NCBI RefSeq assembly: GCF_058153355.1
Contig: NZ_CM177019.1
Length of the DNA: 64,000 bases
Strand: one strand, 5' to 3'
Of the stretch, positions 24,001-33,000 are shown one piece after another. The first letter of the stretch is position 1. Each line of letters opens with the position of its first letter. Position numbers: made by a program.

Positions 24001-27000
24001 GCCCGGCATAGACGCCAATCATAGCGAACAGGATACCAATTGACGCGATCTTGACGTTTTTCCACGGTTTCATGTCCACCGCAAACGCATCTTTGAAGGT
24101 GAACGGCGTGGCGCGCGGTTTGATAAAACCGATCACCAGCATCACTACCACGTTGATACAGAACGTACAGGCCAGCACATAGAGGAAATGGAAGTCGAAC
24201 TTCACCAGATAGTTGATGGTGATGTAGCTGATTATGCCAATCCCCATCGCCACTTTTGCCGCCAGCGCCGGAATGCGGGGGAAGAAAAAGCCCATAATGA
24301 TGATGGTAACCAGCGGCACGTTGTAAATACCGTTGAGCTGTTTCATCCAGCTATACAGCCCCTGCGGCGCGTTGGCGATCCACGGCGCGACCAGCACCGA
24401 AACGATGGCGATAAAGAAACCAAATTTGCGCCCAACGGTGACCAGCTGTTGCGGCTCGGCATTCTGGTTAATGATGCGCCGGTAAATACCCATACTGAAT
24501 AACGTACTGGCGCTATTCAGAAAGCCGTTGAAGGTACTGATCACCGCACCAAATAACACCGCGCCGAAGAAACCCACCAGTGGCACTGGCAGAACGTTAT
24601 TGACCAGCGTCGGGTAGGCCATGTCGGCTTTAGGTAAATCCTGATACAGATGAAACGCAATCAACCCTGGCAGCACCAGTACCAGCGGGTCGAGCATTTT
24701 CAGCACCGCCGTTAACAGCGCCCCCTTTTGCCCTTCCGCCAGGCTTTTTGACGCCAGCGTGCGTTGCACGATGCCCTGATTTGTACACCAGTAAAAGGTG
24801 TTCACCAGAATCAAACCGGTAAATGCCGCGCCAATCGGCAAGGGATCGGTCGGGCCACCGACTGAGTTTAATTTCTCGGCGTGAACGGTGGTGAGTTGCT
24901 CAATGCCCTGCATAAAGCTACCCTTGCCCATCGCGATCAGGCCAAATACCGGCACCATCAACCCGCCGATAACCAGCCCAATACCGTTGATGGAGTCCGC
25001 CACTGCCATTGCGCGCAGCCCACCAATCACCGCATACAGAATCCCCGCCAGACCGAGCAAAATCACCAGTAACCAGATAGCCGCACCGTGAGAAATTTGT
25101 AACGATTCCCCGACGTGAAACAGGCTGTTGAGCGCCAACGCGCCGGAGTAGAGAACAATCGGCAGAAAGCAGACACCGGTGGCAATGAGGAAGCAGAAGT
25201 CGATGATAATACGCGTCGTTTTATCATAACGTTCCTCCAGGAAATCGGGGATGGTGGCAATGCCACGCTTCAGATAGCGCGGTAAAAAGATTAGCGCGAG
25301 GAAGATCAGCGTCACCGCAGAAGTGACTTCCCAGCCCATCACCGACATGCCGCTTTTGTAGGCCTGCCCGGAAAGTCCAACCAGTTGTTCCGTGGAAAGG
25401 TTGGTTAACATTAACGAAGCGGCAATAACCGGCGCTTTTAGTGAACGTCCGGCAAGAAAATAGCCTTGTTGCGATCCGGTATCTGTTTTGCGGACCTTCC
25501 ACCAGGTGATGACCGCCACCAGCAGCGTAAAACCGACAAAACTCAAGATTTGTAACGAATTCATCTCATAGCCCTTATTTATGTTTATGTCCCGGACGCA
25601 TGAATATAGGGAGAGGTAAAATGCGTCGGGTCAGGCAGTCAGATTCTTAAAATACAAACGTCGTATCCCTGAACGGATTGTTTTCTGTTAAGTTCAGGTT
25701 GTGAGCATAATTCGCCGGAGGGATATTAAAATGAATGGAAAATTGCAAAGTTCGGATGTAAAAAACGAAACTCCGTACAATATTCCCTTATTGATTAACG
25801 AAAATGTGATCTCCAGCGGAATTTCTCTGATCTCGCTCTGGCATACCTACGCCGACGAGCATTATCGGGTGATCTGGCCGCGGGACAAGAAGAAACCGCT
25901 TATCGCCAACTCATGGGTTGCGGTGTATACCGTACAAGGATGTGGGAAAATTATTTTAAAGAATGGTGAACAAATAACACTGCATGGCAACTGTATTATA
26001 TTTTTAAAGCCAATGGATATTCACTCTTATCACTGTGAAGGTTTAGTCTGGGAACAGTACTGGATGGAATTTACCCCCACAAGTATGATGGATATTCCCG
26101 TCGGTCAGCAAAGCGTTATTTATAATGGCGAAGTTTATAATCAGGAACTCACCGAAGTTGCTGAATTAATTACTTCACCAGAAGCAATAAAAAATAATCT
26201 GGCAGTCGCTTTTCTGACGAAAATTATTTATCAGTGGATTTGTCTTATGTACTCAGACGGTAAAAAAGATCCACAACGGCGGCAAATTGAAAAACTAATT
26301 GCCACTTTACATGCCAGTCTGCAACAACGCTGGAGCGTAGCTGATATGGCTGCCACGATCCCCTGTAGCGAAGCCTGGTTGCGTCGTCTGTTTTTACGCT
26401 ATACCGGCAAGACGCCGAAAGAATATTACCTAGATGCACGTCTGGATCTGGCGCTATCGCTATTAAAGCAACAAGGGAACTCGGTTGGCGAAGTCGCTGA
26501 TACACTCAACTTCTTCGACTCCTTTCATTTCAGCAAAGCCTTTAAGCATAAATTTGGTTATGCGCCGTCAGCCGTGCTGAAGAATACGGACCAGCACCCA
26601 ACGGATGCCAGTCCACACAATTAACGTAACTCTGGCCAGTACGCTTTGTTGGCCTCCAGCAACTCATCCAGAATAGCTTTGGCGACCGAGGCGCTCGGTA
26701 CCTTTTTCGACAGGGTAATCGCCTGCCACAGGTGCTGATATGAACGCTGTTCCCAGGCGTCCACGACCAGTTTTTCCACCGCCACTTGCTGACTCATTAA
26801 CCCTTTCTGAAACTGCGGGATATCGCCGACCACCAGTGGTTCTGGTCCGTTGTGCCCGACCAGACACGGGATCTCGACCATCGCTTCATCATCAAAGTTA
26901 TGAATTGCCCCGTTGTTAGGCACAATCAGCAACATCCGCTCCTGAGTGTTGAAGGCAATTGCCGCCGCCAGATCGACGATGTATGACGCATGTTCGTCAA

Positions 27001-30000: not shown

Positions 30001-33000
30001 GGTAGCGTGGGGGCTGGTGGTCCGCCGCCACGGTAGCGGTACTTACCTGGTGCGCAAAGATGTATTGCATCAAACCGCCAGCCTGACCGGGCTGGTGGAG
30101 GTGTTAAAACACCAAGGAAAAACGGTCACCAGCCAGGTGCTGATTTTTGAAATCATGCCTGCGCCTCCGGCCATTGCCAGCCAGTTACGGATTCAAATCA
30201 ACGAGCAGATCTACTTCTCCCGTCGCGTTCGTTTTGTGGAAGGGAAACCGCTGATGCTGGAAGACAGCTATATGCCGGTAAAACTGTTCCGCAACCTATC
30301 GCTGCAACATCTGGAAGGGTCGAAGTTTGAATATATTGAACAAGAGTGCGGGATTCTTATTGGCGGTAATTATGAAAGCCTGACGCCGGTTCTCGCCGAT
30401 AGACTGCTGGCGCGGCAAATGAAGGTAGCGGAACACACACCACTGCTGCGGATCACCTCGTTGTCATATAGTGAGAGCGGTGAGTTTTTGAATTATTCAG
30501 TGATGTTCAGAAATGCCTGTGAATACCAAGTGGAGTACCATTTACGGCGACTCCACCCGGAAAAGAGTTAACCGATACTCCAAAAGAGCACCGCCAGTAA
30601 TTGTGGGGTGATAATGCGCAGGAACATCACCAACGGATAGACAGTGGCATAAGAGAGTGCCGCCGCACCGCTGGTTGGATGAAGATTATTAGCAAATGCC
30701 AGCGCCGGAGGATCGGTCATGGAGCCAGCCAGCATCCCGCACATGGTCAGGTAATTCATTTTGGCTAACATCCGCGCCAGAATGCCGACCGTAATCAGCG
30801 GAACGGCGGTGATGAGAGCACCATAACCAATCCAGCTTAGCCCTTCGCCATTGACCAGGGTATTGACAAAATCCCCACCGGATTTCAGACCTACTACCGA
30901 GAGGAACAACACGATCCCCAACTCCCGCAGCGCGAGGTTAGCACTTGGCGGCATAAACCAGTACAGCTTGCCGATACTGCCGATACGCCCGAGGATCAAC
31001 GCCATAATCAGCGGACCGCCCGCCAGTCCCAGTTTCAACGCTGCCGGGAATCCCGGCACAAAGACGGGAATAGAACCTAACAATACGCCAAGCCCGATAC
31101 CAATAAACACCGGCAGCATCTGAACCTGTTGCAGTTTCTGCTGCGCATTCCCCAGCACATTGGCAACGGCATCAATTGCGGACGGACGCCCCACCAGGTT
31201 GAGGATATCGCCGAACTGCAGGCTGATATCACCACTGGCGACCAGTTCGACCCCAGCACGGTTCAGACGCGAAATAACAACGTCATAGCGTTCTTTAAAG
31301 TGCAGATCGCGAATACGCTTACCAAGCACGTTTTCATTGGTGACCACCACACGCTCGACGCGTAAATCAGTGCCTTTCGTGGACAGCGAGGTATCGACCT
31401 CCTGACCAATCACCAGTTGCGCATTATGTAAATCCGCTGGCTGCCCCACCAGATGCAGCAAATCGCCCAGTTGGATAATAGTATCTGGCGAAGGTACTTT
31501 TAGGGTTTCTTCTCGTTTCAGACGCGAACAGATAATTTTGTCCCCGTTGAGAATCGGTACATCTTTAATGGCTAAATCATGCAGGTTAGGGTTCTCAACG
31601 CGAATATTGATAGTCCTGATCAGCGCGCCGCCATTGGTGCGTGAAGACTCGTGCTGCTGGGCTTCTGTCTCGACATTGACGCGGAAAATAACCCGCAACA
31701 TCCACATGGTGAACAAAATCCCGCAAATGCCGAATGGATACGCCATCGCGTAACTCATCCCCATCTGATCGACCATTTCCATTGGTGTACCCAGGTCGCG
31801 CAAGATCTGCTGCCCTGCCCCCAGTGCTGGCGTATTGGTTACCGCACCGGAGAAAATCCCCAGCACGACCGGCAGTGGAATATCAAACAGTTTATGCAGG
31901 ATGGCGGTAACCAGACCACCGATGATGACGATCAGAACAGCAAACAGGTTGAGACGTAATCCGGAGACGCGCAATGAGGCAAAGAAGCCCGGCCCCACCT
32001 GAATACCGATGGTATAAACGAACAGGATCAGGCCAAATTCCTGAATAACATGCAGCATATCGCTACTTAATGTCATCCCCGCCTGAGAAACAAAATGGCC
32101 GACGATGATCCCACCAAACAGCACGCCGCCAATACCTAATCCTATGCCGCGAAATTTGACGTTGCCGATAAACAAACCGACGACTGCCACCAAAGCCAGA
32201 ATACTGACCGTTAATGCTATATCACTCATCGTCCATTTCTCTTGAGATAACATTTTAATTGCTACGGATTATGGCTGAATCGGTGAAGCAGATTTGCCTT
32301 ATAGCGCACATTATCACGGGAAAGAACGTGCCGAAATATCTTAAACAGGCGAAATTTAACGCTTTGTTGAGTAAGAAAGACAAAAAAAGCCCCACCAGAA
32401 TGGTGGGGCAAAGAGAATAGCTAGTTAGCTATTTAACGCGGGACGTTCGCTGATAGCGATACGCTGCGCTGCGATGGGTTCAGGCTCATTACGAATTAAA
32501 TCAATATGCAGTAAACCGTTTACGAAGGTTGCACCAGAGACTTCCATATTTTCAGCCAGCGTAAAGCTCAGGCTAAATGGCTGATTCATAAGCCCTTGAT
32601 GCAGCCATTTTTTCTCTTCTTTTGGCTGCTCCGGCGTGCCTTTTACGCTCAGGCGCGTACCTTCCAGTTGAATATCTAAATCTTCCTGACGAAAACCTGC
32701 CAGCGCAAGGGTAATGCGGTAGTGGTTATCGTCGCTTTTCTCAATGTTGTACGGCGGGAAGCTCTGGCTTTCACCGGCGTTTTGCAGTGCGTTGGCCAGT
32801 TTGTCAAAACCGATCCATTGACGCATCAGTGGGGATAAATCGAAGTTACGCATAGTCATTTCTCCTTCTAAGAAGCGAGTAAGTACCTGCAAATCCGAAG
32901 ATTCGCATATGCTCCCTGACGGCGAGCATGGAGATATCAGGCCGCGCCAGGCGGCCTTAGGGAATTAGTTGATTTCGATACGGCGCGGTTTTTTCGCTTC

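Follow-up and report, generated by a model that had tools for sequence, protein, structure and literature searches.

The glv genes of Escherichia coli K-12 are broken, which raises the question of whether the same locus in another strain is a comparable relic or a complete alpha-glucoside PTS operon. The locus considered here lies within a 64,000-nt stretch of contig NZ_CM177019.1 (assembly GCF_058153355.1), referred to below as the window. An earlier note on this DNA had read it as apparently intact. The evidence assembled here indicates that it is probably the ancestral, undamaged enterobacterial alpha-glucoside PTS operon (glvCB-glvA(G), corresponding to aglA-aglB of Klebsiella), operating by the mechanism proposed below.

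Gene Content and Layout

The locus comprises a fused transporter gene, a downstream hydrolase gene, and a divergent regulator gene (Table 1), and glvA, glvCB, and yidP contain no internal stop codon or frameshift. The open frame of glvCB spans 27943..29820 on the minus strand; within it, the ATG at 29559-29557 (MLSQIQRF...) was chosen as the start, in agreement with the K-12 and PGAP annotations, and yields the 538-residue product. Its stop codon, TAA at 27945-27943, overlaps the glvA ATG at 27943-27941, while the stop codons of yidL and glvA overlap as TTAA. The earlier note's description of a 538-residue EIICB with a Shine-Dalgarno-backed start, coupled by a TAATG overlap to a 440-residue GH4 enzyme with an intact NAD-binding motif and accompanied by a divergent GntR-family yidP, thus holds, as does its claim of structural intactness. 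An IS4-bounded rearrangement is present near the locus in the source genome.

Table 1. Positions in the window of the glv genes, K-12 lesion sites, and upstream elements
Feature	Position	Strand	Basis
glvA (glvG in K-12), 440-aa GH4 NAD+/Mn2+-dependent 6-phospho-alpha-glucosidase (predicted), intact	26621..27943	-	ORF + Pfam
glvCB, fused 538-aa PTS EIIC-EIIB, alpha-glucoside subfamily, without EIIA domain	27943..29559	-	TIGR02005 + Pfam
TAATG overlap of glvCB stop and glvA start	27941..27945	-	sequence reading
Shine-Dalgarno AAGAGGA, 7 nt 5' of glvCB ATG	29567..29573	-	sequence reading
EIICB codon 369, CAG (Gln) in window, TAG (amber) in K-12	28453..28455	-	alignment to MG1655
508-bp glvA segment, missing from K-12 and from about half of E. 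coli	26843..27350		alignment to MG1655
8-bp direct repeat AGTGGTTC, left copy, deletion boundary	26835..26842		right copy 27343-27350
yidP, divergent GntR/HutC-family regulator (wHTH + UTRA), 238 aa	29855..30571	+	profile search
Inverted repeat GTCTA-N16-TAGAT, candidate YidP (HutC-type) operator	29709..29734	-	cross-genus conservation
Conserved block CATGAAAGCGATCACGAA, CRP-like, 7/10 consensus positions	29671..29688	-	nearly invariant, 21 genera; putative role
105-nt region directly 5' of glvCB, almost without variation in E. coli	29560..29664	-	column comparison
yidL, AraC-family regulator, convergent with glvA	25731..26624	+	ORF + profile search

The Transporter GlvCB

GlvCB matches TIGR02005 with 957.5 bits (cutoff 607.3) over residues 2-523 of 538, carries the Pfam domains PTS_EIIC and PTS_EIIB, and aligns over its full length to PtsG structures. 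The EIIC motif GITEP(L/I)EF occurs as GITEPLEF at residue 322, and Cys469 in the EIIB motif CATRLR aligns with the active-site cysteine of PtsG and is invariant in 78 orthologues. By these features GlvCB is assigned to the alpha-glucoside-type transporters of the PTS Glc family. NCBIfam and Pfam profile searches did not detect an EIIA domain in the protein, and crr does not lie in the window, so that EIIA-Glc (Crr) would be expected to act as phosphoryl donor in trans. This expectation is consistent with the statements of Pikis 2006 and Thompson 2001 quoted in PMC5309279, according to which AglA expressed in E. coli depends on Crr, and AglA/AglB of K. pneumoniae give E. coli K-12 the use of alpha-glucosides via the host Crr.

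The Hydrolase GlvA

GlvA contains the Pfam domains Glyco_hydro_4 (PF02056, 223.5 bits) and Glyco_hydro_4C (PF11975, 189.2 bits), and its N-terminal dinucleotide-binding G-x-G-S motif appears as GGGSTFTP at residues 10-17. Its closest structural relatives are aligned without gaps: PDB 6dux at 89% identity (E=1e-274), which equals the K. pneumoniae ATCC 13883 protein at 439/439 positions, and B. subtilis GlvA 1u8x at 73% identity (E=5e-224). Structures of 6-phospho-beta-glucosidases match at 1e-61 or weaker. NCBIfam has no model specific to GlvA, and the sole matches there (alpha-galactosidase and AglA models) fall below their cutoffs. These similarities place GlvA among the GH4 6-phospho-alpha-glucosidases of the GlvA/AglB/MalH type, nearer to this branch than to the beta-glucosidase or alpha-galactosidase branches. 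Rajan and co-workers are said to have recognized in 2004 C171 and H202 of the B. subtilis enzyme as metal ligands and D172 and Y265 as catalytic residues. These four align gaplessly to C169, H200, D170, and Y263 of GlvA, which are invariant in 76-78 orthologues.

A single residue counts against a fully functional enzyme. Position 414 of GlvA is lysine in the window. All 70 orthologues from other genera have threonine here, as do the 10 further E. coli alleles in the comparison and the structures PDB 6dux, 1u8x, and 6wbt; the remoter 6vc6 and 1s6y have leucine, and none of these has a charged residue at the site. T414K is private to this allele among the intact E. coli alleles in the comparison and also sets it apart from the Klebsiella aglB product; GlvA of identical sequence is found on just 5 contigs, including one in GCA_015332025.1. 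The substitution might already impair the hydrolase in the source lineage, in which case the locus would only look intact and be in early decay, as in other E. coli lineages; the IS4-bounded rearrangement nearby could be seen in the same light. This alternative is, in our judgment, very unlikely given that all catalytic residues are intact and that one substitution in 440 residues fits normal polymorphism. Position 414, moreover, lies close to the C-terminal end and is not known to be among the residues that bind NAD+ or Mn2+ or take part in catalysis.

Lesions in K-12

The K-12 MG1655 record lists glvC (368 aa), glvB (161 aa), and a glvG pseudogene (b3683, b3682, and b4556). The two loci occupy the same position, flanked by yidL, yidP, yidE, and ibpBA, and share about 97% nucleotide identity, a yidP of equal length, and an identical 105 nt 5' of glvCB. 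Two lesions distinguish the K-12 copy. The first, a CAG to TAG change that creates an amber codon at EIICB position 369, accounts for the split between glvC and glvB. The second is a deletion of 508 bp in glvG that is out of frame and bounded by 8-bp direct repeats; these lie 508 bp apart, which is also the length of the deletion. GlvA loses residues ~199-368, H200 and Y263 among them, and the reading frame is shifted. In addition, K-12 EIICB carries the substitution P238Q, at a position where 70/70 orthologues have proline and the window retains it.

With CAG at codon 369 and the 508 bp present, the window locus is not a cryptic glvCBG of the K-12 type. The MG1655 annotation and alignment bear out the earlier note's description of the K-12 counterpart as cryptic, with split glvC/glvB and a glvG pseudogene; K-12 is the damaged form, and the two do not share an identical gene structure. 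The suggestion that the K-12 genes would differ by frameshifts proved correct for glvG, where the frame-shifting deletion is the sole indel. It failed for glvCB, since the full alignment contains no indel there and the damage is a nonsense substitution.

Distribution and Variation Among E. coli

Across 5426 complete E. coli genomes, the 508-bp segment is kept in 1652 (~30%), O157:H7 included, and in all of the 11 sampled genomes with the segment both genes are intact and already carry PGAP annotations. Three main states are found: intact (~30%), transporter kept with hydrolase deleted (~40%), and locus absent (~19%). Codon 369 encodes glutamine in 3839 of the genomes and is amber in 348, mostly K-12 laboratory strains. 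The intact form is both ancestral and common in E. coli, and the window locus is an ordinary instance of it; the hint in the earlier note that intactness is peculiar to this strain does not stand. Annotation of other E. coli genomes routinely records intact copies (as "PTS sugar transporter subunit IIB" and "6-phospho-alpha-glucosidase"), which in this sense are already known. A literature search found no paper describing the intact E. coli glv locus as such.

Intact loci such as those of O157:H7 TR01 and strain 2017-02-2CC (EIICB WP_000952127.1) have the same structure, with products of 538, 440, and 238 residues. Their EIICB differs from that of the window by 1-6 residues and their GlvA by 2-5; at the DNA level the window allele reaches at most 98.7% identity to any of the complete genomes. 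Against most of 10 other intact alleles, dN/dS is 0.03-0.05 at dS ~0.1 for glvA, glvCB, and yidP alike, which indicates purifying selection on the glv genes. Counting against the preferred reading of a working operon, loss has occurred repeatedly in E. coli, by the 508-bp deletion, by whole-locus deletion, and by the K-12 amber.

Relatives in Other Genera

The closest characterized system is aglA-aglB of K. pneumoniae (Thompson et al. 2001; Pikis et al. 2006; PDB 6dux/6dvv). Both have an EIICB gene followed by a GH4 gene (81% and 89% identical, respectively), an upstream palindrome, and a Shine-Dalgarno sequence, and neither has an EIIA domain; related Klebsiella species also match in the divergently placed GntR/HutC regulator and in chromosomal position (yidE...yidK). 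The stop and start codons overlap in the window and are separated by a short gap in Klebsiella (ATCATG). Synteny and identity together identify the window locus as the positional orthologue of aglA/aglB. The yidP-EIICB-GH4 module is conserved across Enterobacterales, with the full yidE...yidK context in several genera, yidL being syntenic in several as well.

The glvA-glvR-glvC genes of B. subtilis (malA-glvR-malP) likewise combine a TIGR02005 EIICB with a GlvA that is 73% identical and has the same catalytic residues. They differ from the window in gene order and in that the physiological substrate in Bacillus is maltose. The B. subtilis regulator GlvR is presumably of the RpiR rather than the GntR/HutC type.

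Proposed Function

In the proposed mechanism, phosphate would pass from PEP via EI, HPr, and EIIA-Glc (Crr, encoded elsewhere) to Cys469 of EIIB, and EIIC would import the alpha-glucoside and deliver its 6-phosphate. GlvA, with NAD+ and Mn2+, would then split the phospho-glucoside into glucose-6-phosphate and the aglycone. Likely substrates are sucrose isomers (e.g., palatinose), isomaltose, maltitol, methyl-alpha-glucoside, and possibly maltose. The earlier note had proposed maltose or other alpha-glucosides; orthology with Klebsiella AglAB (Thompson 2001 and Pikis 2006, as quoted) points to the first four of these groups and not to maltose in particular.

The practical value of the finding is small. 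It does define both K-12 lesions exactly, as a single amber codon and a repeat-flanked deletion of 508 bp, and it illustrates that genes called "cryptic" in K-12 are often functional in E. coli otherwise and damaged only in particular strains. Expression of the operon, if it occurs, could open to about one in three E. coli strains the use of alpha-glucosides (e.g., isomaltulose) that are closed to K-12, which would be relevant to gut ecology and to industrial strains grown on starch hydrolysates (PMC5309279).

Regulation and Expression

YidP consists of a GntR wHTH domain (PF00392, 75 bits) and a UTRA domain (PF07702, 105 bits), and its orthologue divergently adjoins EIICB in most related loci retrieved from other genera. 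Of 59 loci from other genera, 28 have the palindrome GTCTA-N16-TAGAC at about -176 relative to the EIICB ATG, and the window copy lies at the same distance. YidP probably binds this candidate operator and represses the operon until an inducer binds its UTRA domain. One half-site reads TAGAT in E. coli and TAGAC in the other genera, Klebsiella included. The GAGGA core of the Shine-Dalgarno sequence is kept in 20 other genera; the block immediately 5' of this sequence, conserved in all the other genera, is altered in E. coli alone and spans 25 nt in the comparison with Klebsiella. A consensus scan found no sigma-70 promoter 5' of glvCB or yidP. These E. coli-only changes and the promoter result weigh against the main reading.

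They also fit an alternative in which the ORFs are intact and the operon is phenotypically silent, like the beta-glucoside operons bgl, asc, and chb: the proteins would work if made, wild-type regulation would be off, and an alpha-glucoside phenotype would need an activating mutation. One argument for silence, and a further point against the main reading, is a VITEK 2 survey in which all E. coli isolates, one of O157:H7 and 55 others, tested negative for palatinose and alpha-glucosidase (56/56; PMC9631374). For comparison, about 30% of E. coli and the examined O157:H7 genome have intact genes. The E. coli type strain, taken by phenotype alone, likewise gives negative results with palatinose, turanose, maltitol, and alpha-methyl-glucoside. 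In keeping with a silent operon, E. coli also appears as alpha-methyl-glucoside-negative in classical identification tables. On the other hand, the VITEK 2 isolates are known by phenotype alone, the tests are short, and the AGLU substrate is non-phosphorylated. The dN/dS of ~0.04 in three genes, together with the nearly invariant 105-nt region, further argues that the operon is used often enough for selection to keep it. Silence appears rather unlikely, and the preferred reading, an undamaged operon that may be expressed in the source strain, would accord with this conservation.

Within E. coli, only 1 of 105 columns of the leader varies, versus 87 of 539 third-codon positions (p=1.5e-6). The leader holds a -10-like TATCCT (29627-29632) and a short GGCC/GGCC stem with 2 compensatory pairs; its RNA fold, anti-SD pairing included, is not significant (z-score -0.91). 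A broader interpretation, which we regard as quite unlikely, would make glv a maintained polymorphism of E. coli, the intact form supporting niche-specific growth on dietary sucrose isomers (isomaltulose, i.e., palatinose), the leader with its covarying stem acting as an undescribed cis-regulatory element, and the EIICB kept unchanged without GlvA having a second transporter role.

Two other candidate sites were set aside. A CRP-like site at 29738 has 8/10 positions, but the surrounding stretch is unconserved in other genera. glvB has been listed with genes having a "potential SOS box" (PMC6590174), and a scan of 26400-30700 gave no convincing LexA box, the best match (13/20) lying inside glvA. 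No Rfam family matched 29450-29900 at E<=1; over the whole window, istR and ROSE are the only matches at the Rfam gathering threshold.

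Organization of the glv locus

Judged by sequence, the glv locus of the window is the ordinary, ancestral form of the known Glv/Agl alpha-glucoside PTS with its GH4 hydrolase. The genes have the E. coli-type order yidL/glvA/glvCB/yidP and lie between yidK-yidJ and yidE-ibpB-ibpA. The gene layout proposed in the earlier note was found at the locus with all of its elements (ORFs, domains, TAATG overlap, and Shine-Dalgarno sequence). Pfam and NCBIfam assign both GH4 domains to the 440-aa GlvA, PTS_EIIC and PTS_EIIB domains to the 538-aa EIICB, and GntR and UTRA domains to the regulator YidP. 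EIICB scores 957 bits against TIGR02005, the alpha-glucoside-specific IIBC family (cutoff 607). The yidL and glvA genes are convergent with overlapping stop codons (TTAA, 26621-26624), with neither an intergenic gap nor a terminator to separate the two.

Features of the glv locus and of the region upstream of glvCB (window positions)
Feature	Position	Strand	Basis or remark
glvA ORF, 440 aa	26621-27943	-	ORF call
Segment missing in K-12 glvG, 508 bp	26843-27350		Alignment to MG1655
TAATG overlap joining glvCB and glvA	27941-27945	-	Sequence
glvCB open frame, 5' of glvA	27943-29820	-	ORF call
glvCB start ATG (MLSQIQRF...), giving 538 aa	29559	-	Annotation
Shine-Dalgarno AAGAGGA of glvCB (EIICB gene), 7-nt spacing to ATG	5' of 29559	-	Conserved across genera
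Short GGCC/GGCC stem, two compensatory pairs	Upstream of glvCB		Conserved across genera
-10-like CTATYCTC	Upstream of glvCB		Conserved across genera
Block CATGAAAGCGATCACGAA	Upstream of glvCB		Conserved across genera
Inverted repeat GTCTA-N16-TAGAC (TAGAT in E. coli)	29709-29734 (about -176)		Conserved across genera
yidP, 238 aa	29855-30571	+

Orthology and conservation

GlvA aligns without gaps to PDB entry 6dux (89% identity), whose sequence is that of a Klebsiella pneumoniae ATCC 13883 protein at 439/439 positions, and to Bacillus subtilis GlvA (1u8x, 73% identity). It has counterparts of B. subtilis C171, D172, H202, and Y265 as well as the GGGSTFTP motif. The roles of these four B. subtilis residues are presumably those described by Rajan et al. 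(2004).

Approximately 80 related loci were collected by a pattern scan of representative genomes and then searched by tblastn. The yidP-EIICB-GH4 module is kept across Enterobacterales, Aeromonas, and Vibrio, and the entire yidE...yidK context is kept in several genera, including Citrobacter, Klebsiella (K. spallanzanii), and Pseudocitrobacter. The GlvA catalytic residues and Cys469 of EIIB are invariant among the retrieved orthologues. By tblastn, EIICB of K. pneumoniae and that of the window share 81% identity. PMC5309279, citing Thompson 2001 and Pikis 2006, attributes to K. pneumoniae AglA/AglB the uptake and cleavage of alpha-glucosides, sucrose isomers among them, and states that with AglA/AglB, which work with the host Crr, E. 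coli K-12 can use isomaltose. Relative to most of 10 other intact E. coli alleles, glvCB, glvA, and yidP alike have dN/dS values of 0.03-0.05 at a dS of ~0.1, which indicates purifying selection on all three genes.

Lesions in K-12

The earlier note had contrasted this locus with a cryptic K-12 counterpart, and the contrast stands as to the genes affected: the MG1655 record lists a 368-aa glvC, a 161-aa glvB, and a glvG (glvA) pseudogene. The type of lesion, however, differs from that expected, as alignment places the glvC/glvB split at EIICB codon 369, which is CAG in the window and TAG in K-12, with no frameshift. Over the full alignment to MG1655, the single internal indel is the 508 bp absent from K-12 glvG. 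This deletion is out of frame and removes residues ~199-368. The 8-bp repeat AGTGGTTC occurs at both of its boundaries, with a spacing of 508 bp between the copies, which suggests an origin by slippage or illegitimate recombination. K-12 GlvC also has Q238 where 70/70 orthologues have P; after the amber codon and the 508-bp deletion, this substitution is probably a third lesion.

Frequency of the intact form in E. coli

Population counts were made over 5426 complete E. coli genomes, with alleles counted by 55-mers designed so that a mismatch at the centre leaves no 28-nt seed intact. The locus is present in 4384 genomes, the 508-bp segment is retained in 1652, and the Gln369 allele occurs in 3839; the amber allele is found in 348, mostly K-12 laboratory derivatives. 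Intact 538-aa and 440-aa genes are present in 11/11 segment-retaining genomes sampled, O157:H7 TR01 among them, and yidP is frameshifted in one of the 11. PGAP names the two products "PTS sugar transporter subunit IIB" and "6-phospho-alpha-glucosidase". All three deletion genomes sampled have an intact EIICB beside a glvA pseudogene. The locus-less class was examined in a single genome, where yidL adjoins yidE across a short gap. Therefore, the intact operon is a frequent and already annotated state in E. coli, and the K-12 lesions are derived; the intactness that the earlier note had treated as particular to this strain is common. Loss of the locus has recurred in E. coli, and Touchon et al. 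(2009) list glvC as variable among groups of this species. Only two threads are mildly novel, namely the polymorphism with three states in the population (intact, glvA-deleted, absent) and the conserved leader upstream of glvCB.

By subtraction of counts, ~2200 complete E. coli genomes combine the Gln369 EIICB allele with the 508-bp glvA deletion. One of three glvA-deleted strains (L015-L017; O26:H11 and others) has EIICB WP_000952127.1, the same protein as in glvA-intact strains, so the transporter is kept there without its hydrolase. Strain CX04 has intact glvCB and glvA and a frameshifted yidP, so glv expression there may be derepressed. GlvA of O157:H7 TR01 carries R184, where 77/77 orthologues have glycine.

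Function in this strain

GlvA residue 414 (codon 26702-26704) is K in the window. The 70/70 orthologues, the 10/10 other E. coli alleles in the comparison, and the structures 6dux, 1u8x, and 6wbt have T; more distant GH4 enzymes have L. T414K is private to the window allele, and only 5 contigs on record encode the exact GlvA protein. In a VITEK 2 survey, 56 E. coli isolates of unspecified glv genotype, one of them O157:H7, were all palatinose- and alpha-glucosidase-negative (PMC9631374), a uniform result hinting that intact glv genes may give no phenotype in routine tests.

Region upstream of glvCB

The 105 nt 5' of glvCB (29560-29664) vary at 1/105 columns among 16 E. coli alleles, far below the third-codon positions of glvCB, of which 87/539 are variable within E. 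coli (p=1.5e-6). The GTCTA-N16-TAGAC palindrome, the leading candidate for a YidP site, is consistent with the pattern usual for HutC-type operators. E. coli alone lacks the otherwise conserved CCCTACNGGTTGTTA block directly 5' of the Shine-Dalgarno sequence, which is replaced there. The CCCTACNGGTTGTTANRTGAGGAT block before the EIICB start is kept in every other genus examined (window 29561-29600 against L054 and L056, from other genera, and 18 other loci), and E. coli has TACTTACAGAATTGAGAAAAGAGGAT at this position. Given this replacement and the TAGAT half-site in place of TAGAC, regulation may have changed in E. coli.

The same 105 nt include an anti-SD-like sequence able to pair with the Shine-Dalgarno/start region; a leader fold with this pairing had no statistical support (z=-0.91). 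Compared with 2017-02-2CC and Z0117EC0005, dS is 0.01-0.03 in glvCB and glvA and 0.14 in yidP, a jump that points to a breakpoint of recombination within or close to the glvCB-yidP intergenic region (~29560-29855).

Other features of the window

An IS4-family element (37958-39400; transposase ORF 37970-39316) lies right after dgoT, beside which dgoD, dgoA, dgoK, and dgoR are missing. Past this element (40043-52275) are a PstS-like gene, glpD, glpG, glpR, rtcR, rtcBA, and malT, presumably about 300 kb distant in K-12. The dgoT-IS4 junction had no match among complete E. coli genomes, and the region has the appearance of a rearrangement or deletion bounded by the IS. Two Rfam matches, istR (18564-18693, 147.7 bits) and, upstream of ibpA, the ROSE_2 thermoregulator (33372-33444, 96.2 bits), are ordinary for this part of the chromosome.
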